64,000 bases of DNA from Octopus vulgaris (lineage: Eukaryota): the NCBI GenBank assembly GCA_951406725.2, contig OX597837.1, positions 28,520,001 through 28,584,000 on the forward strand, read 5' to 3'. This document shows, piece after piece, positions 7,091-59,828 of this stretch (the first letter of the stretch is position 1; each line of letters opens with the position of its first letter). The notes beneath the pieces were generated by a model that was not told where the DNA came from, did no database searches, and worked only from the letters and a program-made list of their open reading frames with translations. A program made the position numbers and the translations under genes.

Positions 7091-7479
7091 TTAGCAATTG
7101 CGGCGAGTTGCTTATGTATATAGCGGGTCGCTACATGTGTGTGTGTGTGTGTGTTTGCTGTAATTAGTCCAGAGATTTCTGTACTAGATTAGTATTTTTC
7201 TTTCACCAAATCCGATAGGACGAAAGCGAGTAAAGCTGACCTCGGTGGGAACCGAACTCGCAGTGCCGAATCGGAACCAATACTCACCACCAACCGTTCT
7301 ACTCAACGTTTTAACAACTCTGCCAAATTATGCTCTCTTTTATTTATTTTTGATAACCTGCCGCATTCTCATGTTTTGTTTTTCTTAAATATAATAATTA
7401 ACGAAGTTTCGAGAAGACCGAGAAGAATAAATATAAGAAGCAACATTATAGTTTGCAATACGTATGTATATAAATGCAT

Positions 7480-8394
7480 ACACGGGTGTAAGTGTGTGTG
7501 TGTGTGTGTGTGTATATGCGTGTGTGAATGTGTATGTATATGTGTGTGTATGTATATATGTATGTGTGTGTGTGTGTATGTATATATGTATGTGTGTATG
7601 TATATATGTATGTGTGTGTATGTATCTATGTATGTGTGTGTATGTATCTATGTATGTGTGTGTATATATGTATATATGTGTGTGTGTATATATGTATATA
7701 TATATGTGTGTATGTATATGTGTGCGTGTATATGTGTGTGTATGTGTATATATGTTTGTGTATGTGTATATATATATATGTGTGTGTATGTATATATGTA
7801 TATATATGTGTGTGTGTATGTATATATGTATATATATGTGTGTGTATGTATATATGTATATATATGCGTGTGTGTATGTATATATATATATGTGTGTGTG
7901 TGTGTATGTATATATATATATGTGTGTGTGTGTGTGTATGTATATATATATATGTGTGTGTGTGTATGTATATATATATGTGTGTGTGTGTGTATGTATA
8001 TATATATATATGTGTGTGTGTGTGTATGTATATATATATATGTGTGTGTGTGTGTATGTATATATATATATGTGTGTGTGTATGTATATATATATATGTG
8101 TGTGTGTATGTATATATATATATGTGTGTATGTATATATGTATATATGTGTGTGTATGTATATATGTATATATATGTGTGTATGTATATATGTATATATG
8201 TGTGTGTATGTATATATGTATATATGTGTGTATGTATATATGTATATATATGTGTGTATGTATATATGTATATATGTGTGTGTATGTATATGTGTATATA
8301 TGTGTGTGTATGTATATATGTATATATGTGTGTGTATGTATATATGTATATATGTGTGTGTATCTATATATGTATATATGTGTGTGTATGTATG

Positions 8395-8425
<31 letters not shown>

Positions 8426-8498
8426 ATGTATGTATATATATATATATGTGTGTGTGTATGTATATATGTATATATATATATATATGTGTGTGTGTATG

Positions 8499-8531
<33 letters not shown>

Positions 8532-8574
8532 ATGTATATATATATATATGTGTGTGTGTGTGTATGTATATATG

Positions 8575-8607
<33 letters not shown>

Positions 8608-8698
8608 ATGTATATATGTATATATATATATATATGTGTGTATGTATATATGTATATATATATATATATGTGTGTGTGTGTATGTATATATGTGTATG

Positions 8699-8731
<33 letters not shown>

Positions 8732-8748
8732 ATGTACATATGTGTATG

Positions 8749-8779
<31 letters not shown>

Positions 8780-8796
8780 ATGTACATATGTGTATG

Positions 8797-8831
<35 letters not shown>

Positions 8832-8848
8832 ATGTATATATGTGTATG

Positions 8849-8881
<33 letters not shown>

Positions 8882-8898
8882 ATGTATATATGTGTATG

Positions 8899-8929
<31 letters not shown>

Positions 8930-8934
8930 ATGTA

Positions 8935-8979
<45 letters not shown>

Positions 8980-9118
8980 ATGTATATATGTGTATGTATA
9001 TATATATATATGTGTGTGTGTATGTATATATGTGTATGTATATATATATATATATATGTGTGTGTGTATGTATATATGTGTATGTATATATATATATATA
9101 TGTGTGTGTGTGTATGTA

Positions 9119-9165
<47 letters not shown>

Positions 9166-9170
9166 ATGTA

Positions 9171-9217
<47 letters not shown>

Positions 9218-9252
9218 ATGTATATATGTGTGTGTGTGTATGTATATATGTG

Positions 9253-9289
<37 letters not shown>

Positions 9290-9302
9290 ATGTATATATG
9301 TG

Positions 9303-9335
<33 letters not shown>

Positions 9336-9340
9336 ATGTA

Positions 9341-9389
<49 letters not shown>

Positions 9390-9557
9390 ATGTATATATG
9401 TCATCATCATCATCATCATCGTTTAGCGTCCGTTTTCCATGCTAGCATGGGTTGGACGGTTCAACTGGGGTCTGTGAAGCCAGAAGGCTTCATCAGGCCG
9501 TCAAATCTGGCAGTGTTTCTACAGCTGGATGCCCTTCCTAACGCCAACCACTCCGTG

Positions 9558-9589
<32 letters not shown>

Positions 9590-9642
9590 ATGTATATATG
9601 TGTATATATATATATATATGTGTGTGTGTATGTATATATGTG

Positions 9643-9673
<31 letters not shown>

Positions 9674-10066
9674 ATATATGTGTATATATATATATATATA
9701 TGTGTGTGTGTATGTATATATGTGTATATATATATATATATGTGTGTGTGTATGTATATATGTGTATATATATATATATATGTGTGTGTGTGTATGTATA
9801 TATGTGTATATATATATATATGTGTGTGTGTATGTAAATATGTGTATATATATATATATGTGTGTATGTATATATGTATATATATATATATGTATATATA
9901 TGTGTGTGTGTGTGTATGTATATATGTATATATATATGTATATATATGTGTGTGTGTGTATGTATATATGTATATATATATATGTATATATATGTGTGTG
10001 TGTGTATGTATATATGTATATATATATATGTATATATATGTGTGTGTGTGTATGTATATATGTATG

Positions 10067-10099
<33 letters not shown>

Positions 10100-10251
10100 A
10101 TGTATATATGTATGTATATATATATATGTGTGTGTGTGTGTATGTATATATGTATGTATGTATATATATATATGTGTGTGTGTTTGTGTATGTATATATG
10201 TATGTATGTATATATATATATATATATGTGTGTGTGTATGTATATATGTAT

Positions 10252-10283
<32 letters not shown>

Positions 10284-10304
10284 ATGTATGTATGTATATA
10301 TATA

Positions 10305-11765: not shown

Positions 11766-12770
11766 GACGGCAACTGCAATAATAGCGTTAGTAACACTAA
11801 TAGATACCCGAACACTTTGTTATGAACATGCCAACAGGAAGCACAAATTATAAAAATGAAGAAAAGAATAAATAAATAAACCATATTAAGATAAAGAACA
11901 CATTTAATTAACGAATCATATTAGCGTAACGAATAGGTAATAAGTACTGGTATCATTACTAAGAAAGCAGCTAAAGACTTAATTAATGACGTTATATTTA
12001 GAGTAGAAAGTTTTCATGAAACACCGTCGTCTGCTTTCTAAACTACTTCTCTGTTGTTCTATTTTTTTTAATTTTCAACATAATTTTTCATGTAATCCAA
12101 ACTAAAGCCATGATTTCACATCAAACTGTATATGGACACCAGTTTCTAGAATATAATAAATGACGAACGTCTTCAAATATCTTGGTAGCTTTATTTTATT
12201 TGCATATTTTGTACATTCCCCGTCGAAGTCGGCTGCCGCTACTTTCTAGCTGGGTTAATGCGCAATTTCCTGCAGAAGTTAGGTCTGGAATCCAGATAAA
12301 TGAAGAAAGCCATCCAAGAGTATAGGCACAGCAGTTGAAACTAGTTCAAGGGGACTATTAGTGGGTGATAAGAGAGCATAAGTGGGACCTTTTCCGTGGG
12401 CGAAGACTAGTTCTGCCATTGCTGCTACACAGAAACGTAGCGTACAGTCTAAGGGGCGAAACGCTTGTAGTTCTGAGATACCTATTGACGGTTTTCCAGC
12501 ATTGCAATAGATTTGGAAGAGCTTACGAAGTAACTCCTGTAGTTTCTGTGTGGAGCAAAACATTTCTGACGCTTATTACAACCACTTGTTTCACCTGTCG
12601 ACCAGACAAAACCGGGATGAAGGAAGTAAGCATGTAGATCAACAAATGTTCATGCCAGGAAAATAACAGGAGCAAACCTTATGTTTCAAATTTTTTTTTT
12701 CTGTCGTTTCAGCTCAGAGCTGTGGCCATGCTGTTGCACCGCCGTTAAAATGTAAACACAAGCGAAAATA

Positions 12771-13184
12771 TATTTCTTTACTACCCACAAGGGGCGAGAG
12801 ACAGAGGACAAACAAGGACAGACAAATGGATTAAGTCGATTATATCGACCCCAGTGCCTAACTGGTACTTATTTAATCGACCCCGAAAGGATGAAAGGCA
12901 AAGTCGACCTCGGCGGAATTTGAACTCAGAACGTAGCGGCAGACGAAATACCTATTTTTTTACTACTCATAAGGGGCTAAACACAGAGGGGACAAACAAG
13001 GGCAGACAAAGGGATTAAGTCGATTATATCGATCCAGTGCGTTACTGGTTGGTACTTAATTTATCGACCCCGAAAGGATGATAGGCAAAGTCGACCTCGG
13101 CGGAATTTGAACTCAGAAAGTAACGGCAGACGAAATACCGCTAAGCATTTCGCCCGATGTGCTAACGCTTCTGCTAGCTCGCCT
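12771..13184 (-). mobile_element. Tandem MetaSINE-like copies (family B)
   Basis: Meta-type domain gtcgactttgcctttcatcctttcggggtcgat occurs twice, joined at aaata|ggtatttcg. Confidence 0.85.
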
Positions 13185-19500: not shown

Positions 19501-20985
19501 AAGTCACCTAGAATGATGAGTTTATCTGCGCGGGGAGCCGCGGTGATGACAGAGCTCAAGTCTTCATGATGACAGAGCTCAAGTCTTCATAGAACTTGTC
19601 CTTGGTCTCATTTGGATTCGTCATGGTGGGGGCACAAGCGCTGACAATGGTGTACTTCTGTCCGCGACAGAAGTACACCATTGGCGTCATTAGGCGATCA
19701 GTCATAGCTTTTGGGGGAACCAACCAACTTGCCAGCCAATGTTTGACTTAACTGCAAAGCCAACTCCTGCCTCTCTTCTCTCTTCAGGTCCACATCCACT
19801 CTAAAAGAAAGTGTACCCTGCACCATTTTCCCTGTTGTTCGCCTTCGCCCTGCATCCTGGTTTCGCAGAGAGCAGCAATGTCGATGTTATATCTGGCGAG
19901 TTCATTTGCTATGAGTGCTGTGTGTCTCTGAGGGCTCTCCGACTCGTCTATGGCGAGTTCATTTGCTATGAGTGCTGTGGGCTCTGGGGTCTCTCCGACT
20001 CGTCTATATCAAGAAGCGTACTAACGTTCCAAGCAGCGAGGATGAGTGGTGTACTCTTCGCTCCTTTTCTTTGTTCTTTGTTTCGACCGCAGTGTGTCGG
20101 GTCCCCTCCAGTCGCGGTAGGCTGGCTAGGATAGGCGGCGAGCTGGCAGAAACGTTAGCACGCCGGACGAAATGCTTAGCGGTATTTCGTCTGCGTTACG
20201 TTGTGAGTTCAAATTCCGCCCAGGTCGACTTTGCCTTTCATCCTTTCGGGGTCGATAAATTAAGTACCAGTTACGCACTGGGGTCGATGTAATCGACTTA
20301 ATACCTATGTCTGTCCTTGTTTGTCCCCTTTGTGTTTAGCCCCTTATGGGTAATAAAGAAATAGGTAGGCTGGCTAGGATAGGTGGAGCAGGAAATGTTT
20401 GGGACACCTTTTCTAGTCCGCTCCTCATGCCATGGGGGTGAGCAGTGTGTTCCTAAATAAGACTGCTCAGTCGCCCAGACGGCTGCCGAAATCCACTGCT
20501 GCTCCAGGCCAGTGAATAGCGACCCTGTGGCCCTGATCCGCCTGTGTGCAGGTTTGCTGCTACGACTTCCAGTGTACCCACACCTGTCAATTCGTCGCGT
20601 GCCTGTCGCCACAGGATTTTGGGATAAAGAGGTGGAAAGAAGGATGAAAGATGACTTGTAGCGAGGAAACTTTATTTAAAGTGAGGAAGGGTTGCGCATC
20701 ACCGACCTCACTCTCTCGTCTGAGACGGTTTTAACCAGTGACAAGACCAGATCGAGACGACTGGGGACAGAACCAGATGCAGTGAATGACCAAGATGTCC
20801 TATAGTGCCTCATCTTGCCCTATGCACTCTACGGTGCCCTGTTGTAACCGCCCTCTTCTCCGTTGAAACCGTTCTGGTGGTTTCTTCTGTAGAATGAGCC
20901 GGCTTCAGTCTTCGTATGCGTGGGTAGGCAAGCCCTAACTCGCCGAAGGTTTAAGACCGATCGGCTACCCTCACTTGGTTTATAT
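16590..20985 (-). mobile_element. RTE-clade LINE, near full length, decayed and rearranged
   Basis: EN (LAAWNVSTLLD, LGDFNARVG, NSNGLLLL), RT (KAPGPDSIPAE, DLTKAFDTVSR, KQECVLAPTLF, LFADD) and C-terminal QLRWAGHVARM...CRHCQRLF. Confidence 0.93.
20134..20363 (+). mobile_element. MetaSINE-like SINE B inserted in the RTE 5' region
   Basis: 18-bp TSD ggtaggctggctaggata at 20116-20133 and 20364-20381. Confidence 0.9.
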
Positions 20986-24125: not shown

Positions 24126-24461
24126 AGAGTAAAGAGAGTGGTTTGTGTTGTCAGACTAAGTACACACATACATCGTTTAAAAGATATTAATAGTAGCTTT
24201 CAAAATAATCTATTTATTTATCCTAACTCTGTGTGTTGTGGGTAGGGTAGCAATCGGTTTCTAAATATAAAATGGCGAAATATGAGGTTGATTATATAAA
24301 AGTTTCTTTCTTCAACGCCGGACTAAAATGAGTGGATTGGAGTGGACTGAGTGTGTGTGGGAGAGAGAGAGGTGTATGTACAGAATGGGGGTTTTGTGTC
24401 GATTTTTATGACTGTAAATATATCTGGAATAGAGGAAATAAATAATTCTGAGAAAGAAATC

Positions 24462-24629
24462 TTTACTCTTTTACTTCTTTCAGTCATTTGACTGCGGCCA
24501 TGCTGGAGCACCGCCTTTAGTCGAGCAAATCTACCCCAGTACTTATTCTATCGGTCTCTTTTGCCGAACCGCTAAGTGACGGGGACGTAAACACACCAGC
24601 ATCGGTTGTCAAGCAATGCTAGGGGGACA

Positions 24630-24676
<47 letters not shown>

Positions 24677-24829
24677 CACATATATACAACAGGCTTCTTT
24701 CAGTTTCCGTCTACCAAATCTACTCACAAGGCTTTGGTCGGCCCGGGGCTATAGCAGAAGACACACTTGCCCAAGATGCCACGCAGTGGGACTGAACCCG
24801 GAACCATGTGGTTGGTTAGCAAGCTACTT
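24462..24829 (-). mobile_element. SINE A, 3' part (interrupted by two Tx1-type elements)
   Basis: Stops at aagctactt. The missing head accacacagccactcctgcgcct is at 32303-32325. Confidence 0.9.
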
Positions 24830-25057
24830 TATTTCATATAATTTGCCATTTAGGCATTTACAAAGAGGGGACAAACAAGGACAGACAAATATAAAGGGTG
24901 AAGTAGCTTAACACAGTTACAATTTTCGAATGAAATTACGGATAAGATTATAAACAATGAGTTTTACGAAGACAATGTTTAAAAATATTAATGATCATGT
25001 CGAAGGACGGACACCCAGCCATCCGGGTAGAACCTTTACTTTCTGATCCGGTCACAC

Positions 25058-28000
25058 TTACCTGGTGCCAAACATACCCATCTTGCATGCTACAGGCTTC
25101 CATCTTTTCACAAACATATCTCGTGACAGACACCACTTCTCCAGCCTGATTTTGCTACTGAGGTGGTAACTAAAAAAGTTAATCAACCCCTGGCCGGAGA
25201 CAAAGGTGCCTGTCACTATACCTTTCGTACGCGTCTTCCATACTGTTTCTTTCAGTATGGCTACTACACAGAAAAAACAAGCCTTTCTTTCCCTGTTAAG
25301 GAAAGGGGGCGGCACAATCTCGATGATAGACTCAGCTGATAGCTGTACTCTTCCCATCACTGACAACAGTTGTTCAACAAAAGCTATCAGTCCCGATAAC
25401 TCCGGACACTCCACGAATGCGTGCAAGACGGTCTCCCTATCCTGCTCACATCGCGGGCATGTCGGCGAGACGGCACTACCGTGCCTTGACAGCTTGTCGC
25501 GAACAGGTAAAGCCGCACGGAAACACTGCCAGGCCAGGGATTTCTGGTAATTATCCAGATACCCCGGCCCGAACGTCCTCCGGAACAGGTTGACCAACTG
25601 ATTTTCATTGTAGCCCAGGGTCTCCCCCAAGGCGTCTTCGGACTTAACCTCCACTAACCCGCTATAGAAATCCGTGGTGGAACTCCTGTTGCCGGCGTTG
25701 CCCACCCGAGAGAGTAGCTGGAGCGCCTGACGGCACTCCAAATGCCATTCACTCAGTTTAGGTCTCCGCTTGATCCATGCACCGATGTCCGTTAGGGATG
25801 TTAACTGGGGAAGGTAGAACCGGACGTGCGGTGACCACACCTGCTCTCCATCCAGGTAAAGCCAGAGGTGCCTCAACCTTAACGCGAGTTTTCACATCCT
25901 CAGCCAAGGCATCCCTAGCCCACCCTTTAGCGGTTTCTGGCAGCAGACAGAGCGCTTTACAAGTGGCTTTCCTCCTTTCCACAAAAATCGGAAAAGGATT
26001 CTCTCCAACTTGTTCAGCCACAAATCGGGGCAAGGCACCACGGTCAGACGGTAGGTGATTACTGATGCTATAAACATCTGCACCACCTCCGCCTTCCCTA
26101 GCAGGGATAACGCCCGCCCAGACCAGGTCTGGGTTAGAGCGGTCACCTTGTTGGCCACCTCACTCCAATTTTTCTCAATCTGGAGGTCTGGCCCGAACCA
26201 GACTCCGAGCAGCTTAACAGGACCTTCCGTCCAACGCCCTACGACGTTATTGGACGGCATCGGCTTGCCCCTCCAGGTGCCGAGTTGCAAACCGACCGAC
26301 TTGTCCTTGTTAACCTTTGCTCCTGCCACCGCCTCGTAGCTTTTGATGGCCTCTTCCACCACTGGAAGCTGGCCTTCGTCTGCCACGATGATGGAGGTGT
26401 CATCCGCATACGCCGTAGCTCCTCTTCCACACCATAGATCATGCGGCGTGCCCCCTAGTGCCTCCAACTTCCGCAGCAAAGGCTCAAGAGCCAATACGTA
26501 TAGGAGCGAGGACAGGGGACACCCTTGACGAACTGAACGCTCGATCCTGAACGGCTTCGAAAAGGAACCGTTCACCTTGACTACAGACTCGATGTCGCTA
26601 TACAAAGCAGCGATCCAACCTCGAAAGGTCGGGCCAACCTCGAAAGGAGGACCGCCGCCAAGTACCGATGGTCGACCCTATCAAATGCTTTGGACTGGTC
26701 TAAATGTACCAGTGCTCCCCCTGCGCCAGAAAGCTTCCCCACCCTCTCTAAGGAGTAGCGTATAAGGTGGAGATTGTCGTAGATCGTTCTGCCAGGGATA
26801 GCGCACGTTTGCGCTTCCCCGACAAGTTTGTCCACGACCCGCGCCAACCTTTTTGCTAGCACCTTGGCCAGAATCTTTAACTCTGTGTTCAACAGAGTTA
26901 TGGGCCTGAAGTTCCCTATCTCGTCCCCCTTGTTCGGGTCCTCCTGATCAACGTCACAACCCCCGGCTCGCAGACTTGGGAATTCTCCCATTCTGCTGCC
27001 AGTTTGCGTAGACGCTAGCCAGCAGGTGCCCGAACAAGTCTGGCATACTTTTATAAAATTCATAGAGCAGACCATCGAGACCCGGCGACTTCTCCCCGGG
27101 GCACTTGCCCAACACCTCGATTACCTCCTCGGCTGTGATTGGCCCTTCACAGCACTCAGCCTCCCGTGTCGAGAGGCGCGGGCCACCAGACAGGAAGTCC
27201 CTAAGGGCCTCACCATGATCCAGCGTCCCGCACCTCCCGAACAACTCGGCGAAGTGCTTGTGAAGTGCCTCACACATCTCGTCCCGCTTCTTGATCGTGC
27301 ATCCGTTTTCATCAACAAGAGACCCAATTGTGGCATCGTTTCCACACTGTGTTTCTATCGTACGGGCCCATCCGGCAACATTAATTCCCTCACGGCCCAA
27401 TGCTCGTACTTTAGCCCGAACTCTACATCCCTCATGTTTGGTTTGCCGTTCTCGCCGCTAAAATGTGAGATGCAGAGCCCAACCTCAACGCCTCCTCTAA
27501 GTTCTTAACTAGTTGCCCTTCTATTCTAGCCCTATCTAGTCTTAGTTGTTTACTAAATCTAATGGACTCGAATCGAATGGCTCTTTTGAGGGCGAACCAC
27601 CACCGATTATTAACCACGGCTCCGGTTAACGCCCTCTGCACTAACACCTTAATCCGGCTACGGTATGCCTCGCGTGTCAAAATAGACTTGTTCAGCTTCC
27701 AGTAGCCGGTTCCTATCTTAAGTGTGCTATCTATGTCCAGTCTACACGTGACCATTCTATGGTCAGTATAGGGCACCTGGACGAGCTGTGGATAACTAAA
27801 ACTAGACTTATCTCTTGTTCTTATCACTATCCTGTCTAGATAAGACTTGAACCTTCCGTCGCCACTCATCCAGGTCCACTCTGGGACGTTCGGATGGTCA
27901 AGTCTGTAACGATCTGCCAGCTGAAACCGCTTAATCAGATCCACGAGACGTGAGTTTACTTTCCTATAGATCGAGCCAACGCTATCGATGTGAACGTCAA

Positions 28001-28436
28001 CGATAGCATTAAAGTCCCCTAATATCACTAAAGTCTTCGACGTCACGAGAAAGCCCTCTAGGCGCCGATAAAAATCAGTTTGGAAACCTCTAGCACAAGG
28101 TGCATAGAGTCCGATCAGCCTGAAGGCCTTACTGCTGTATGTCACATCAAGGACGACCAGCCCACCTTCTGGGTCTACATAGACTGTACTTGTCTGCAGA
28201 GCCAAGTCTTTACGGATCAGTACCACTACACCCCCTCGCCCTCCGGTCTGGCCAGGAGACATGATTTTCTCGTAGCCATTCAGGAGAGGCGAGAAGGTTT
28301 GTAGGCTGTCCAGCTTGGTCTCTGTAGCAACCATCACATGTATATCATGTGATCTGAGGTCGTCGAAGAAACAAGCCTGCTTCCACTTCGAACTCAGACC
28401 ACGCACATTTAAACAACCAAGGTTAAGCGAAGCCAT
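25058..28436 (-). pseudogene. Tx1-like ORF2: AP endonuclease, reverse transcriptase and C-terminal zinc motif, frameshifted
   Basis: MASLNLGCLNVRGL, GDFN, SYLDR and TDH (APE); KSPGLDG, FRPITLLN, KAFDRV, VRQGCPLS and AYADD (RT); CPRCEQDRETVLHAFVEC. Confidence 0.93.
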
Positions 28437-28453
28437 TACAAAAAGTAAAAGTT

Positions 28454-29906
28454 CTACTTACATTTCGTTGGAGAGGTGGGGGCCGACCTCACCACACGTT
28501 TGTGGGCCCCTTCTTTCTCCTCCTTCTTCAAATAGTCCGGCGAGTTCGCGATATGCCGGATGGCGTTTGGGTGTCTGTCTTTTAATTGTTTGAACGTTGT
28601 TTCCGCAATCCACGCGTATCTCTCATTTCGATCTTTGTATTTGTTGTACAGTCTTGCTGACTGATGCCGAACCACAATATCGTTTATGTATTTGTTTTGT
28701 GTGTCGAATTCAATTAATATGGGTTCGTTTTTTTTTTGTCTTCTTTTTCTGGGCCAGTTGAGCGGGATTTTTTTTTTCGTGTCTGTGGTGTGTCTTTGTT
28801 TTCATTATTTTTTATAGGGGATGTGGACGGGGATGATGCACGAATTCTTTTACGAACTGGTGTAAATCCCCCCTCTGATACTTCCATGGTATCGTCTGGG
28901 GTAGCAATAGTTTGTTCATTAGGCGCCGCAGTTTTTAAGGGGGTGGGAGGTTTTAATAATGTAGGGGTTTGTGCGTGCGAGGGCTGGGTTTTTTCTTCAG
29001 TTTGTTTTGGGGTTGGCACCGTAACAGCAGGAGTGGGATTTTTTGTTTTTGTAGGGGTAAGTGAGTTTGCAAGGGTAGGGATTTTTTAATTATCTGAGGG
29101 GCCTGGTGTCTGCGGTTTCTTTTGCTTGTCTGGACAGTCTACACGAATGTGGCCCTTTTTGCCGCAGGCGTAACAGGTGGGTTTTCGGCCTTCGACCTGT
29201 ACCCTGAGGGCTACGTTCTCGCCCACGAGTATCACCGGGTACCTGTGCCCAGCCATTCTCAGGAAGGAGCTGCAGGTCCTCCGGTGTTCCTTGAATTAAT
29301 ATATTAATGTTACGCCCAAGCCAATATAGAGGGGCAGAGCATGTTACTTGTAGTATTTTAATTTTGTCCGCCCTTTTATATAACAGGGCGGCCACTACCT
29401 CTACCGGATCTACTTCCGGCGGGGCTTCTGCAATCCTGACCCGGGACGTCCTGCGTCCCCTATAGCTTGGGAAAAGTACCACCTCCTTGGTTTTTAGGGG
29501 GTTCACAGAATGCCCGCGGGCCACCTCTTCCCCCGAGAAGCGGACATCCACAGTGCCATATGCCCGTCCCCTGGCGACGTACACGATGTCCTTCCAAATC
29601 GGGGACAGGCATTTCTCGATGGTGTTTTTTTCAAAGTGTTTGAATCTTCTGCTTTGTGGAACAGAAGGTTTTAAGCACTACGGTCCGCTTCTCGGTCTCC
29701 ACGATACTGGCGGAGGGTGATATTTTAACATCACCACCCTCCTCTTGCATTCTTTTAAATAGCTCGACGAGCTGATTGACAATGATGTCAATGTTCTCGG
29801 TAGCCACTGTGGCTACCGCAGAAAATTTTTTAACATTGCTCTCCTCAAGAGCACTACTTTCGTGAATAATCTCAACAGACATTATTCTGTTGAAATTAGA
29901 CAACAC
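28454..29906 (-). pseudogene. Tx1-like ORF1 (nucleic-acid binding, CCHC zinc knuckle), frameshifted
   Basis: ORF pieces 29631-29906, 29090-29584, 28714-29019 and 28454-28675. Knuckle CYACGKKGHIRVDC near 29135-29176 in a shifted frame. Confidence 0.85.
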
Positions 29907-30296
29907 AAAAATTACGAATATTGGTTTCCCACAAAACTGGGAAACCTATAGAAAGTTTTTCTTCCAAAGTAGTTCAATAAGTGGTAAAAAGCAGTTCAAA
30001 AAATTCCAATTCCCACCCCCATTCGGGGGAGGGGCACGAAAATAGTCTGGCAGGACTATATATAGTCACGTAGAAAAAAGCCACAATGGCTAACAGTTCA
30101 ATGGTAAGAAATTATCCAATTATTCCCCAGTAAAACCGGAGAACAAGACAGTTCAACAACGTTCAAAAACAAATTTTCAGTAGTAAAAATTCAACAATTA
30201 ACAACACAGCAAAACTCTTACCGGGAAGAAAACGCGTCCAAACCGTAGTAAGGTAAGCAAAGTCATTCTTCAGTCAGTGAGGTTAGAAAGCTACTT

Positions 30297-32288
30297 TATT
30301 TTATATAATTTGCCACTAGGGCAGCACACAGAGTAGTAGCTACGGGCTGGACAAGGACATTAATGGATGATGGTGGTGGTGGATGAAGATGGTGATGGGA
30401 GAAGTCGAAAGCGCCCGCCGACTTTCGCTTCTCTAAAACAATGTTTCAATAAATACATTTAATAAAATGTTCACAATGATTCAAATTACATAAAAAATGT
30501 TCAACAATTCTCCTCGTCAGGTCCCCGAAGCAAATTGTCTTGCCGCCTGCAGACAACTCTGCGACGACAAGTCGGGGCCTGCAAAGAGAAAAGTAAAATC
30601 TTTCCTTTCAAAGGTCTCTGCGACCCTTGACAAAGTATCTTCCGTTACTTTTTCCGCAGCTACCCACGGAGGCCATAACGGACTCCTTGAGCCGACCGTG
30701 CCCTTACGTTCTCGGTCACCCAAGCCATTCAAAAATATTTCCACCTCCTCTCCCTTGTGGTAAAGGAGGAGAAGCATCTCCTCTTCACAGGAAGGGGCCT
30801 CACACTGCTCCGTCAGTGGCACACTTCCTACTGGCGGAGCCTTGTCCGCGGGTGGCACACATCCCACCTGCGGCTCCGTCGGCGACACAAAAACGTCAGT
30901 CGTCCGACCTCTCCTTTTTCTCCTCCTTCTTTTGGGGGAGACTGCTGACCCAGGGGACTCCGTCACCAGACACGGGGGATTGCTATCCCCCTCCGCCCCC
31001 TGAGCGTTCTTTGGCGGGCAACCATTGTTGCTCGCCTGTCTCTTTCTTTTCGTGGAGGCAACCTCCTCCACGACTTCCACCGTCTCCCCCTCCAATGAGG
31101 GGGCGGCGGGCGCCTTTTCCCCTTTCTGCTCCGGGGCACCACCACGGCCCCCGGGACAATTCTTCCTGATATGTCCGGGCTTCAGGCACAGGTGACACTT
31201 GGTGGGAGCGACCCTCGAGTATCACCGGGTACCTGTGCCCAGCCATTCTCAGGAAGTCCGGGAATTTCATTTCTCCCACAGCCACCGGTGTCCACAGGGT
31301 CAAAGTTGCCTTTGACCCCTCCCAGGCGACCGCGGGAGCCATTTTCACACTCAGTAGTCTGGGTCCGCTATCCCCCAGGCCTCGCCGGATGGTCTTCTCG
31401 ATCCATTCCGCCTCCGTGCCCGGGGGCAGCCCACACACCCAGGCTCTTTTTACTTTTCTGCCACAATACGAGGGGAGGAACAAAATTTCCTCTCCCTCCA
31501 GTGGCTCGCTAGCAAATCTGCTAGCTTCCTCGGGGGTACCAAACAGCAACCACACCGTTGCAAATTTAGTCCCCCGAGAAATAAATTTTATAGTTGGCAG
31601 GTGGTCCCCCAACTCTTTCTCTATAGTATTCCTGTCGAAGAGGGCAATGGCTCCACGCGACCTAGAATAGGTTCGTAGGACCACCGTCCTCTTCTCAAGA
31701 CTTTCAATCCACTGCTTGGGTGGGACGACCTCCCATTCCAAAGCGGTGGTTTCTTTTGTTGCCATGTTTTTTTGGGTTTTTTTTTAAATAAATGTATTCA
31801 GAATAAAACTAAAAAACGAGAAGAAAAGGAAATCCGAAGAAAGTCACAATGAAAAAAGGAGAGAGTCAAATAAAGTTAAAAAGAAAGTCAAATAAAGTTA
31901 AAAAGAAAGTCAATAACACAGCAAAATCCTTTTGGCCATTTGGTACTCCCGGCCTAAATCGAACCAGGATCGCACAACTTCCACAAAAATTGGTGTAAAA
32001 TTGGTAGTTCTTCACAGCACAATACAATTCTCACAATTCGAAGACGGATACTCCCAAAAAATTTTCTCAGCGAGAAAAATATATTTGCCACATGTCGGCA
32101 GAATCAGAATTCTGAATCCAGTAGGACTTCCTGCATGTAAAAAATAATTCTCAACAAAAACTCCCACTGGACCCAGAAAACAGAATCTTACCTTACATGG
32201 GGTTTCCAAAGTTTTCAATTCAAGACGGCTTCAAAAGCACATCTTCACCGCTTCAGTGTCAAACACAACACTGACTCGCACATGCGCA
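30297..32288 (-). mobile_element. ORF1-only (HAL1-like) non-autonomous Tx1-related element
   Basis: ~520 nt 5'UTR, one ORF1 and a ~220 nt 3'UTR whose end resembles the neighbour's (ggcaaattatat-aaata). No EN or RT. Target repeat gtaagaagctactt at 32289-32302. Confidence 0.8.
30517..31765 (-). pseudogene. Divergent ORF1 (~415 aa, one frameshift near 31200) with CCHC knuckle
   Basis: EKRTVVLRTY...NTIEK...LFLPSYCGRK aligns with the neighbour's EKRTVVLKTF...NTIEK...LFPSYRGRR. CHLCLKPGHIRKNC follows the shift and runs into ORF 30517-31095. Confidence 0.8.
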
Positions 32289-32334
32289 GTAAGAAGCTAC
32301 TTACCACACAGCCACTCCTGCGCCTGGTTATACA

Positions 32335-33156: not shown

Positions 33157-33399
33157 AAGGCGGCGAGCTGGCAGAAACGTTAGCACGCCGGGCGAAATGC
33201 TTACCGGTATTTCGTCTGCCGTAACGTTCTGAGTTCAAATTCCGCCGAGGTCGACTTTGCCTTTCATCCTTTCGGGGTCGATAAATTAAGTACCAGTTTC
33301 GCACTGGGGTCGATGTAATCTACTTAATCCGTTTGTCTGTCCTTGTCTGTCCTTGTTTGTCCTCTCTGTGTTTAGCCCCTAGTGGGCAGTAAAGATATA
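33157..33399 (+). mobile_element. MetaSINE-like SINE B
   Basis: TSD ggtatttcaca at 33146-33156 and 33400-33410. Confidence 0.9.
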
Positions 33400-38000: not shown

Positions 38001-39215
38001 TACGTAGATACAAATATATATATATATGCATACGTAGATACAAATATATATATATATGCATACGTAGATACAAATATATATATATGCATACGTAGATACA
38101 AATATATATATATGCATACGTAGATACAAATATATATATATGCATACGTAGATACAAATATATATATATGCATACGTAGATACAAATATATATATATATA
38201 TATATATGCATACGTAGATACAAATATATATATATATGCATACGTAGATACAAATATATATATATATGCATACGTAGATACGAATATATATATATATGCA
38301 TACGTAGATACGAATATATATATATATGCATACGTAGATACAAATATATATATATATGCATACGTAGATACAAATATATATATATACGCATACGTAGATA
38401 CAAATATATATATATATATATATATATGCATACGTAGATACAAATATATATATATATGCATACGTAGATACAAATATATATATATATATATATGCATACG
38501 TAGATACAAATATATATATATATGCATACGTAGATACAAATATATATATATATATATATGCATACGTAGATACAAATATATATATATATGCATACGTAGA
38601 TACAAATATATATATATATGCATACGTAGATACAAATATATATATATATATATGCATACGTAGATACAAATATATATATATATGCATACGTAGATACAAA
38701 TATATATATGCATACGTAGATACAAATATATATATGCATACGTAGATACAAATATATATATGCATACGTAGATACAAATATATATATATGTGCATACGTA
38801 GATACAAATATATATATATATATATGCATACGTAGATACAAATATATATATATATATATGCATACGTAGATACAAATATATATATATATATATATATATG
38901 CATACGTAGATACAAATATATATATATATGCATACGTAGATACAAATATATATATATATGCATACGTAGATACAAATATATATATATGCATACGTAGAAA
39001 CAAATATATATATATATATATGCATACGCAGATACAAATATATATATATATATATATATATATGCATACGTAGATACAAATATATATATATGCATACGTA
39101 GAAACAAATATATATATATATATATATGCATACGCAGATACAAATATATATATATATATATATATGCATACGTAGATACAAATATATATATATATATATA
39201 TATGCATACGTAGAT

Positions 39216-39254
<39 letters not shown>

Positions 39255-39445
39255 CGTAGATACAAATATGTATGTATGTATATATATATAAATACGTAGA
39301 TACAAATATATGTATATATACATACGTAGATACAAATATGTATGTATATATACATACGTAGATACAAATATGTATATATACATACGTAGATACAAATATG
39401 TATGTATATATATGCATACGTAGATACAAATATGTATACATGCAT
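37195..39445. repeat. Minisatellite (TA)n-TGCATACGTAGATACAAA
   Basis: About 70 units with a near-constant core and variable TA spacer. Confidence 0.98.
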
Positions 39446-40739
39446 GCATAAAGTATGTGCATTCACACTAACAAAACATGTAGACAATATGAATGTAATA
39501 ATTAGTGCAGCCTTCACTTTATTTCACCTCCGCCACCACCTGACTACATGCAATCTCAAAGACAGAGACAGCAGATATGCGAGCGTTCACAAACCATCTG
39601 CATGTGTTGAGGTTGTTTGTTGTTAGTTCAGTAGTTGTTTTTGGCCAACTGCCAGGAGCGAGGCTGGCTAACTACAAAAACTGTGTCGAGAGAGAATTTA
39701 GTAGAGACAAGGACAAAGTGACTTAATATTTTTGCAGTCCTTTTCAAATGAAAGAATTACGAGTTCAAATCTCGCTAGTTCTGTGGTATACATATATATA
39801 CGACGGGCTTCTTTCAGTTTCCGTCTACCAAATCCACTCACAAGGCTTTGGTCGGCCCGAGGCTATAGTAGAAGACACTTGCCCAAGGTGCCACGCAGTG
39901 GGACTGAACCCGGAACCATGTGGTTGGTAAGCAAGCTACTTACCACACAGCCACTCCTGTGCCTATATATATATGATCATCATCGTTTAATGTCCGTTTT
40001 CCATGCTATCATGGGGTGGACGGTTCGACCTGGGTCTGTGAAGCCAGGAGGCTGCACCAGACTCCAGTCTGATCTGGTAGTTTCTACAGCTGGATGCCCT
40101 TCCTAACGCCAACCACTCCTTGAGTGTAGTGGGTGCTTTTTACGTGCCACCGGTACAGGGGCAGGGGAGAATGGCAACGGCCACAATCGGTTGGTGCTGC
40201 CTCACCCCACATCACTTGACAACTGATGCTGGTGTGTTTACATCGTAATTTAGTAGTTCGGCAAAAGGGACCGATAAAATTAGTACTAAGCTTACAAGGA
40301 ATAAGTCTTGGGGGCGATTTGCTCAACTAAAGGCGGTGCTCCAGCATGGCCGCAGTCAAATGACACACAAAAGAAAATGAAATAAAATTAGAACGTCGTT
40401 CAGTAGATTGTTTTCCCGAAGAAGAGTTTTCGCTTGTAACTTGACTTGTAACACACCAGCATCAGTTGTCAAGTGATGTGGGGTGAGGCAGCACCAACCG
40501 ATTGTGGCCGTTGCCAGCCTCCCCTGCCCCTGTACCGGTGGCACGTAAAAAGCACCCACTACACTCAAGGAGTGGTTGGCGTTAGGAAGGGCATCCAGCT
40601 GTAGAAACTCTACCAGATCAGACTGGAGTCTGGTGCAGCCTCCTGGCTTCACAGACCCAGGTCGGAACCGTCCACCCCATGATAGCATGGAAAACGGACA
40701 TTAAACGATGATGATCATATATATATATATATATATATA

Positions 40740-58117: not shown

Positions 58118-58319
58118 GGTGGCGAGCTGGCAGAGACGTTAGCACGCCGGACGAAATGCTTAGCGGTATTTCGTCTGCCGCTACGTTCCGAGTTCACATT
58201 CCGCCGAGGTCGACTTTGCCGTTCATCCTTTCGGGGTCGATTAAATAAGTACCAGTTACGCACTGGGGTCGATGTAATCGACTTAACCCATTTAGCCCCT
58301 TGTGGGCAGTAAAGAAATA
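58118..58319 (+). mobile_element. MetaSINE-like SINE B (short tail deletion)
   Basis: TSD ggtatac at 58111-58117 and 58320-58326. Confidence 0.85.
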
Positions 58320-59828
58320 GGTATACAGAGGTCAAGAGCATAGAAGATACTTCTTCTATGACTAAGTCAGCCTGGTAGAACCCATCCACCCATAAACTAT
58401 AGGAAAAATGGGAGCTGACTGGGGTAGGTTCAATAACAGGATATTTATTTGTTGCTTAATTTTTTCAAATCTATTTCGTAGGTCCCTCTAAGGAATGGGT
58501 TATAGGGGAGGCATAGGAGAAGAGTATAAATAGGATAAGGAGTAAGCTAAGGGAACATTCATCAATTTAATAGTGCTGCACCCGCTTGTTTACAATATTG
58601 AATGATCTCTATCCTACAGTAAATGGACTGAGTCGTCTCAGAGTTAAAAGCCTTGACAACAAACAAAACACAGTATTGGGTTCAGGTGAGAAACCTTTCA
58701 CCAATCTGTAAATTATTAAGACATTAAAACGAGCGATTATATATACTGTATTTTGAAATAATAGCATGAAATTCAATACCAAAAAAATTTCTCACGAAGA
58801 TATATATGTCTAAAATAGTTCTGTTGCAGTGGTTAACTATAATCAGTATGAGAAGACAGTACCAATGCAGTAATAACAGAATGGTAACAGATGGCAGAAG
58901 TTTAAGGAACTGTTAGTAGTTAAGAGGCTCCCAGTAAAGGAATTATTATCTAGGCATTTCAACCAGCAAGTAGTAATAGCTGCCAAATTTAGTCGTTTCT
59001 CATTTAAATTATCATCATAAAACTAAAACTAAGCATTGACCACTAACAAGAATCTCCCAAGTAGCGTAAGAGTCATTTCTTCAACAAATTTGAGCCTTAC
59101 CACAATCTAAAAGAGAAGTAAAAAGCTACAGGTTAAACTGCCAGTGCAAACTTGCAAATTAGAAGTAGATATACAGTAGAGTGTGTGTTTGTGTGTGTGT
59201 ATTATCATCATCATCATCATTTAACGTCCGCTTTCCATGCTAGCATGGGTTGGACGATTTGATTGGGGGACTGGTGAGCCAGATGGCTGCACCAGGCTCC
59301 AATCTGATCTGGCAGAGTTTCTACATCTGGATGTCCTTCCTAACGCCAACCACTCCGAGAGTGTAGTGGGTGCTTTTACGTGCCACCTTGTCAAACTTAG
59401 TATGTGTGTGTGTGTGTCTGTGTGTGTGTATAAATATATCATTAATTAAATATATTCTGTTAGAATATTATACACTGAATTTATAATGAGTGCTCTTTGT
59501 ATAAAATATCAGAAATATTAATACTATAAAATATTTAGACATTAATACGAGTGATTATATATACTGTATATTAAAATAATAGCATGAAATTTAATATCAG
59601 AAAAATTTCTCACAAAGATATATATGTCTAAATTAGTATTGTACTAAAAATATATATAAATATATGAAACATGACAGCTTGAAAGTTTGTTAGTTAAATT
59701 TTATTTATTTATTTAAATTTAATTTACCAAAGTCGACCTGTATGAATCTAAAGCAGTAAATTTTAATCTATTTTCAAAAATACTTTCCTTTATATTTTTC
59801 TAATTTTAAATCAACATTCAATATATTA

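Follow-up and report, generated by a model that had tools for sequence, protein, structure and literature searches.

A 64-kb stretch of the Octopus vulgaris genome (contig OX597837.1, positions 28,520,001 to 28,584,000; hereafter the window, to whose own numbering the coordinates below refer) holds a short interspersed element (SINE) that has been opened at a single base by two retroelements. Both elements and their host lie on the minus strand, in the order SINE head, target copy (14 bp), element B, target copy (16 bp), element A, target copy (16 bp), SINE body. Element A is a non-LTR retrotransposon (one that lacks long terminal repeats) of the L1 group, apparently of the Tx1 type, and B is a non-autonomous, HAL1-like passenger that encodes open reading frame 1 (ORF1) only. 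The lineage of such long interspersed elements (LINEs), together with its ORF1-only passengers, sits at one and the same SINE base across the genome, most likely (with a probability of about 0.85) because the LINE endonuclease nicks there and primes reverse transcription, as the distribution of insertion sites suggests. This is a new class of target and a new type of passenger for a known strategy, and the case is real and strongly supported.

Insertion at One Base of the SINE Head

The insertion point lies 1 base past the A box of the SINE, at GGT-AAG(T/A)AGCTT (the hyphen marks the junction), and A and B end alike, in GGCAAATTATAT(G/A)AAATA followed directly by AAGTAGCTT. Intact SINE copies elsewhere in the window run uninterrupted across GGT-AAGTAGCTTG. 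The same site preference is observed in several families of different age, which have inserted independently, including copies with an open ORF2. From 453 candidate 3′ ends of A, 40 were scored and the best 30 fetched; AAGTAG comes next in 30/30, with 26 continuing into the SINE body and 4 into another element, and the best 30 B loci likewise show AAGTAG in 30/30. The 19-base terminus shared by A and B, taken with no selection by score, occurs 239 times (3 for the control) and is followed by AAGTAG in 183. The first 100 termini listed include 15 exceptions, and each of these was opened. Ten proved to occupy the identical position in a SINE that is of an older form (AAGAAGCTTGCTTCC) or has decayed, some of them followed by a stacked element, 4 were off-site ends that all still begin with AAG (L113, L116, L117 and L121), and one was a chance match with no element (L111). 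A search with the C-terminus of ORF2, which avoids the terminus as a filter, gave 129 matches, of which 40 lower-ranked ones were fetched; the older relatives selected in this way, at 73-97% identity, end at the SINE site in 35/35 cases. A general junction pattern was matched 1653 times against 10 for its control, and among its first 30 loci ORF1 or ORF2 similarity lies at most 1.5 kb upstream in 23.

Distinct flanks of young A copies fall at the site in 53/53 cases, one of them shifted by one base, and none of the 53 has the old AAGAAG form. Young A also favours the GCTAACC subfamily of the SINE, which hosts 32 of 47 copies and makes up 39% of exact empty sites (p 1e-4; the one shifted junction was left out), while older members track three SINE subfamilies. 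According to the available part of PMC4494074, a family counts as target-specific when more than 20% of its flanks are of one sequence type; the shares found here are 183/239, 35/35 and 53/53. Exact empty sites number 46,735 + 30,452 + 4,800 for three variants (~82,000 overall), or ~1.5e-5 of all positions, so that the 30/30 results for A and B cannot be put down to chance; junctions are present at ~2% of exact sites.

A sequence-only reading of the window had noticed the SINE split right after its A box and the same-orientation elements with near-identical 3′ junctions, all of which is plain in the sequence, and had proposed a family that uses this abundant SINE or its tRNA-like head as its target, and as a presumed safe harbour. 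The SINE as target is borne out by the genome-wide tabulation of flanks, in which other copies share the flank, and by A and B each being found alone and in either order, so that neither of the outcomes named as refuting the proposal, unrelated flanks or constant co-occurrence, was obtained; every junction seen is in a SINE or a stack and not in a tRNA gene. The same reading took both elements to be of the Tx1 type; A, with its endonuclease and reverse transcriptase (RT), appears to be so, but B is no second complete Tx1 element.

An Antisense Motif in the 3′ Untranslated Region

The 3′ untranslated regions (UTRs) of A and B each contain a short reverse complement of the target, which we call the anti-target. 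The 7-mer of B is matched by 89 of 2000 shuffles and is not significant alone. Among 72 junction types the motif changes with the target: AAGTAG targets go with a GCTAC motif in 51, with GCTTC in 1 and with neither in 10, whereas AAGAAG targets go with GCTTC in 8, with GCTAC in 0 and with neither in 2. The rows are related by descent, so that a p-value on these counts is overstated, and the inverted pair L072/L073/L130 was left out. An ORF2-coding lineage shows the change of motif, and so does an ORF1-only one; the distance at which the motif lies differs between two lineages (~72 and 38 nt). In RNAfold predictions the motif pairs with the read-through target in A as well as in B. Five U2- or 5S-flanked relatives examined have no anti-target motif.

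Weighing the Explanations

That the LINE and the SINE body travel as one composite, or that segmental duplication makes the pattern, would account for most copies having the same SINE sequence behind them, yet we consider it hardly credible. Over 48 loci the terminal 150 bases of A share 99.3% identity and the SINE sequence behind them 91.9%; because the elements are ~99% alike while their hosts, drawn from different SINE subfamilies, are only ~92% alike, the two are not a composite. Twenty A loci were fetched whole (L091-L110, drawn by their 3′ ends from 29 outside the window, with the truncated L005 excluded), and 18 keep the 5′ tip. In 17 of these 18 the tip comes straight after a SINE head, the outer flanks being unrelated, and the eighteenth lies behind a stacked element. 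Five 5′-truncated copies (L094, L247, L251, L252 and L316) are also joined straight to the SINE head. It is improbable, too, that a tRNA gene family is the true target and the SINE is struck as a look-alike, although the SINE head is tRNA-like and metagenomic Tx1-type relatives (L151, L154) have tRNA heads at their 5′ end: behind every on-site junction read comes a stacked element or the body of a SINE, the target is present at up to 3 mismatches in 0 of 17 distinct tRNAs (from 30 loci only), and the tRNA-headed relatives cluster with 5S-flanked ones (100/100), away from A. Slightly less improbable, but still unlikely, is tethering by protein to the RNA polymerase III (Pol III) machinery on active SINEs, as for TRE5-A, in place of recognition of DNA sequence. 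The site does lie between the A and B boxes, and the preference of young A for one SINE subfamily would be in keeping with it; the insertions are nevertheless base-exact and recur in stacks that put kilobases between the site and the B box, tethered elements are described in the available text of PMC5911963 as inserting in windows beside the gene, and such junctions were seen at 0/30 tRNA loci, a small sample.

A more open, though still doubtful, possibility is that target choice is partly guided by RNA. The anti-target would pair with the top DNA strand and the read-through with the bottom one in a double strand exchange, so that the specificity could track the SINE through a one-base change; this antisense motif of 7-9 nt would have been gained at the move between (TC)n and the SINE head and retuned by one base as SINE subfamilies replaced each other, and the ORF1-only passengers would have retained a guide of their own. 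The covariation (51:1 against 0:8, at two distances in two lineages) speaks for it, as does, weakly, the missing AAGAAG form among young A copies, ~3 being expected from its 4800 exact sites. An RNA-only helix accounts for the same covariation, however, the motif is short, it is absent in 12 of the 72 junction types, in a (TC)n-targeting sister family (the TC family, below) and in the five U2- or 5S-flanked relatives, and the endonuclease loop differs between the SINE- and TC-targeting families.

Several observations also count against specific nicking by the endonuclease, with priming at the nick and growth of stacks at the head side, as the whole explanation. The nicking specificity is deduced from the insertion sites, and the counts above are not independent events, given families and local duplications. 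Not every junction type carries the anti-target. The cut of the top strand is not fixed, since truncated copies span a target deletion (L094), a match of 1 bp (L247) and host matches of 14-16 bp (L251, L316). Within arrays some neighbouring units are identical (1/2 and 4/5 at C1:223 Mb) and pairs alternate on C5, which shows that local duplication makes up part of each array. The order 183/181 on C10 and one T-to-no-T pair are exceptions to head-side growth. Priming at a specific nick remains the reading that we favour.

Junctions and Stacks

The target had been read as recurring three times at the locus. Three copies are indeed present, but they differ from one another. In 7/7 full-length A copies with a T-type host the 5′ copy ends in the AACC of the element, and B of the window presents the opposite case, a T-type tip in an A-type host. 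The differences are thus not decay; in the 5′ duplicate, a mosaic, the element has supplied the distal bases. The tips of older families read GCTTCC or GCTTACC. A fixed duplication of 9-12 bp was considered and dropped, as truncated copies show up to 14-16 bp. The retention of the 5′ tip in 18 of 20 young A copies picked by their 3′ ends makes truncation unusually rare for a LINE, and this scarcity fits a requirement for the tip in joining.

Stacks contain up to 8 elements in one orientation, with A, B and at least 3 other families mixed (20 regions). An extra T in the spacer, read by eye and with the ambiguous pair of the window left out, tends to be common to neighbours of different families: with the T in the downstream spacer it is present in 5 of 6 cases, and without it there in 2 of 13 (p 0.01). 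Such sharing is expected if new copies arrive at the junction on the head side. In the stacks of C5 and C1:29 Mb the youngest B subfamily lies nearest the head, in C10 the oldest lies nearest the body, and several array units have their nearest relatives on other chromosomes (e.g., L060 = L059). Stacks thus appear to grow at the head side, and we infer that junction mosaics and stack polarity record the joining of the 5′ end. At one locus (L130, G000:C1:111116887-111116972) two element 3′ ends, inverted relative to each other, point apart and are flanked on either side by SINE sequence. The TC family stacks too: at position 6029 of L272 a 3′ end is followed by a short (TC)n and the 5′ end of the next copy.

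A Sister Family and the Placement of A

A sister family, at 66% amino acid (aa) identity in the C-terminal part of ORF2, was found in five matches, each followed by (TC)n and three also having (TC)n at the 5′ side. At 30 more loci of this TC family CTCT or CTTT comes first in 30/30, and 26 pass a strict test. The endonucleases of the SINE- and TC-targeting families are 52-59% identical, and the putative hairpin loop, which may set target specificity, differs, being WTWMSGDGRFKSYLDR for A and WTWARNDGSSRSYIDR for the other family. In a careful tree of 26 rows (a larger tree of 93 rows came from a quick search) A and the TC family are sisters (99/97), joined by two proteins including one of Argonauta hians (100/99), the closest named protein at 62%, and then by unnamed proteins at ~41% (100/100). 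Metagenomic relatives at 25-32% have U2 or 5S flanks (Rfam), and further ones were judged by eye to be flanked by heads of U1 and of tRNAs. Three of these Tx1-type elements (L151, L154 and L131) stand behind the apparent 5′ parts of tRNA-Gln, tRNA-Ser and U1, again by eye, and the tRNA cuts lie similarly past the A box. The tRNA-headed relatives group with the 5S-flanked ones and not with A.

The trees, which include neither a named Tx1 sequence nor a true outgroup from L1, place A among U2-, 5S-, U1- and tRNA-head-flanked relatives; L161, at only 166 bits to human L1, was unusable as such an outgroup. The U2-flanked L145 scores 444 bits (tblastn) and human L1 229 bits (phmmer), values that come from different programs. 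Searches among proteins, protein clusters and the ESM Atlas returned relatives that are all unnamed or "hypothetical", with no named Tx1 among them. Membership in Tx1 is accordingly suggested by structure and by target-labelled relatives rather than by named Repbase families. A gag-like CCHC knuckle, seen here in ORF1 of the A copy L108, is presumably typical of the Tx1 clade.

Layout and Coding Content of the Locus

The features of the locus are collected in Table 1. The ORF2 frame at 28436-27432, proposed to be open from the sequence alone, is open and carries the endonuclease domain PF03372. The A family has the domains PF03372, PF00078 and PF13966, with the catalytic motifs present in copy L103, and an open ORF2 of 1140-1150 codons is found in 3 of the 20 loci fetched whole (L103, L104 and L108). 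The best PDB match of A is human L1 ORF2 (E 9e-67), R2 reaching only 1e-19. The zf-CCHC in L108 ORF1 scores E 4e-5; the knuckle of B ORF1 falls under the Pfam cut-off. B ORF1 is 29% identical to that of A across 190 aa (E 1e-22), and tblastn of ORF2 against B gave no match at E 0.01, that is, no endonuclease or RT sequence. The 33 complete units of B have a length of ~2 kb. Copies that stand alone between the head and the body of a SINE (C3:66 and C4:59 Mb), target duplication and subfamilies mark B as a retrotransposing family of its own. Mobilisation of the host SINE by A was considered and rejected, as tails are not common to both.

Table 1. Features of the stacked locus (positions in the window).
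Feature	Position	Strand	Remarks
Host SINE body and tail	24459..24813	-	B-box-like GGTTCAGTCCC at 24798-24788; from sequence
3′ target AAGTAGCTTGCTAACC	24814..24829	-	Host SINE's own bases; from sequence
Element A, full-length Tx1-type LINE, 5451 bp	24830..30280	-	No poly(A) tail; ORF1 and ORF2 frameshifted here
Anti-target AAGCTACTT in A 3′ UTR	24901..24909	-	Reverse complement of first 9 target bases; 2/2000 shuffles reach 9 nt
ORF2 of A: APE-type endonuclease, RT, zf-RVT	25061..28436	-	Five broken frames here
ORF1 of A	28457..29882	-	Broken here; open 488-aa frame with zf-CCHC in copy L108
B-derived patch within A ORF1	29222..29266	-	44/45 bases equal 31212-31256; between short shared words
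Middle spacer AAGTAGCTTTCTAACC	30281..30296	-	Spacer at the 5′ end of A that has become the 3′ junction of B; from sequence
Element B, ORF1-only non-autonomous retroelement, 1992 bp	30297..32288	-	Older B subfamily, ~4% from young arrays
Anti-target AGCTACT in B 3′ UTR	30335..30341	-	RNAfold pairing with read-through target
ORF1 of B, CCHC knuckle	30520..31765	-	One frameshift near 31207 here; open 426-aa frame in L126
5′ spacer AAGTAGCTTCTTAC (AAGTAGCTT+CTTAC)	32289..32302	-	Partial target copy; distal bases T-type, host SINE A-type
Host SINE 5′ head	32303..32325	-	Ends in TGGCTGTGTGGT; A-box-like TGGCTGTGTGG at 32314-32304; from sequence

The B-derived patch in ORF1 of A is private to the window copy, 0/18 other A copies carrying it, and may stem from a template switch, local conversion or an assembly error; no bridging piece was present among those listed from 4 sequencing runs, a result that is uninformative. 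One contig from the sequencing runs spans the 3′ junction of A by 43 and 81 bases, which supports it weakly. The 5′ UTR of A holds a decayed second target copy at 30252-30264 (GACTTTGCTTACC), better preserved in L033, which is likely an old spacer absorbed into the element. The ORF1-only families (B at 32277-32288, and the C and D families) begin with GCGCATG(T/C)GC-like words; we take these to resemble an NRF1 site and hence a possible internal Pol II promoter. Recombinant passengers also occur (L347, L348 and L353), in which a B body and 3′ end carry a 5′ end from a different family.

The SINE head aligns with the tRNA-Lys(TTT)-like genes of the genome (z ~5-6 against shuffles); ARAGORN and Rfam give no tRNA call for it. 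At the 3′ junctions, e.g., 24826-24834, AATAAA is formed only by element end and target together, so that a poly(A) signal would straddle the junction and cleavage would fall within the target; the TC family has an AATAAA of its own. A second SINE (33158-33399 on the plus strand, also 20133-20367, 12766-13183 and 58118-58330) has a tail (..TAAAGAAATA) that resembles those of A and the TC family and is followed by GGTA. Its copy at 33158 has an 11-bp duplication, GGTATTTCACA, and a copy at 12952 runs on into the same motif of its own head; it is probably the passenger of another Tx1 relative. Long degenerate tandem repeats of dinucleotide type lie at 7370-10300 and 38460-39450.

A Proposed Course of Insertion

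The following course may be envisaged. The RNA, whose inserted copy lacks poly(A), probably runs on into the downstream target and would base-pair with the bottom strand where it has been nicked, in the way proposed for R1Bm, while the anti-target in the 3′ UTR probably pairs with the read-through and fixes the starting point. The cut in the top strand probably falls 9-16 bases downstream; the complementary DNA would join by annealing of its target-like 5′ tip to the overhang, which would produce the mosaic of host and donor. Since head and target are thereby rebuilt at the 5′ junction, the next element likely lands there, giving growth toward the head with some local tandem duplication besides. 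B-type elements likely borrow ORF2 in trans by way of the common 3′ terminus and the anti-target. The SINE target likely arose from a switch, in one direction or the other, between SINE and (TC)n within octopods.

Known Systems and Implications

The available text of PMC4494074 gives DNA transposons, LTR elements, U2, U5, 5S, satellites and microsatellites as Tx1 targets, and PMC13282606 reports 13 recently active L1-Tx1 families with 421 insertions in Octopus vulgaris, the word "target" being absent from the part available. In the literature searched we found no SINE-targeting Tx1 family; Repbase and the figure listing Tx1 targets lay outside that scope, and a prior report is possible. The closest parallels are Tx1L in Tx1D of Xenopus and Tx1-Mar, Tx1-8_Crp, Tx1-4_AMi, Tx1-9_AMi and SINEU-3 of crocodilians, described in the available text of PMC4494074, where again a Tx1-type LINE lies in an abundant mobile element, with non-autonomous passengers and tandem insertions around a duplicated target. 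Those systems differ in that their targets are DNA transposons or LTR elements, with a regional preference, whereas the octopus system has one base in a SINE head, ORF1-coding passengers and a mosaic duplicate. Base-exact insertion in multicopy sequence is shared with Kibi in (TC)n, Koshi in (TTC)n, Keno in U2, Mutsu in 5S and Dewa in a tRNA-Leu spacer (PMC4494074, PMC3706591 and PMC5340908, as far as available). According to the same sources, Mutsu subfamilies track target variants in a manner similar to the octopus families, and Kibi uses the (TC)n target of the octopus sister family, to which it is likened by target alone. The octopus target differs from all of these in being a dispersed SINE and not an RNA gene or array, and the U2- and 5S-flanked relatives seen here, unlike A, have A-rich tails and no anti-target.

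HAL1 (half-L1), in the available part of PMC5753468, resembles B as an ORF1-only non-autonomous LINE derivative with several independent families. Unlike HAL1, B is not derived from mammalian L1; its ORF1 is related to that of A yet far diverged from it, only the 3′ terminus is common to both, and B is site-specific and stacks. For R1Bm and SART1Bm, the available text of PMC7265360 describes target-like RNA at or near the 3′ end that is proposed to anneal to the nicked strand; in these members of the R1 clade it is sense to the target, whereas the octopus element, of the L1 group, has an extra antisense motif that covaries with the target.

The usual relation of the two kinds of element is reversed here, as a LINE lives inside a SINE and parts the A box of the SINE from the B box. 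LINEs that insert at specific sites serve as models for targeted gene insertion, and target change by elements with an APE endonuclease is hard to study, differently targeted relatives usually being very distant. Two young families in one genome, one in a SINE head and one in (TC)n, with open-ORF2 copies and a covarying RNA motif, make the mechanism testable, and the sister with its (TC)n target would allow testing how an element changes its target.

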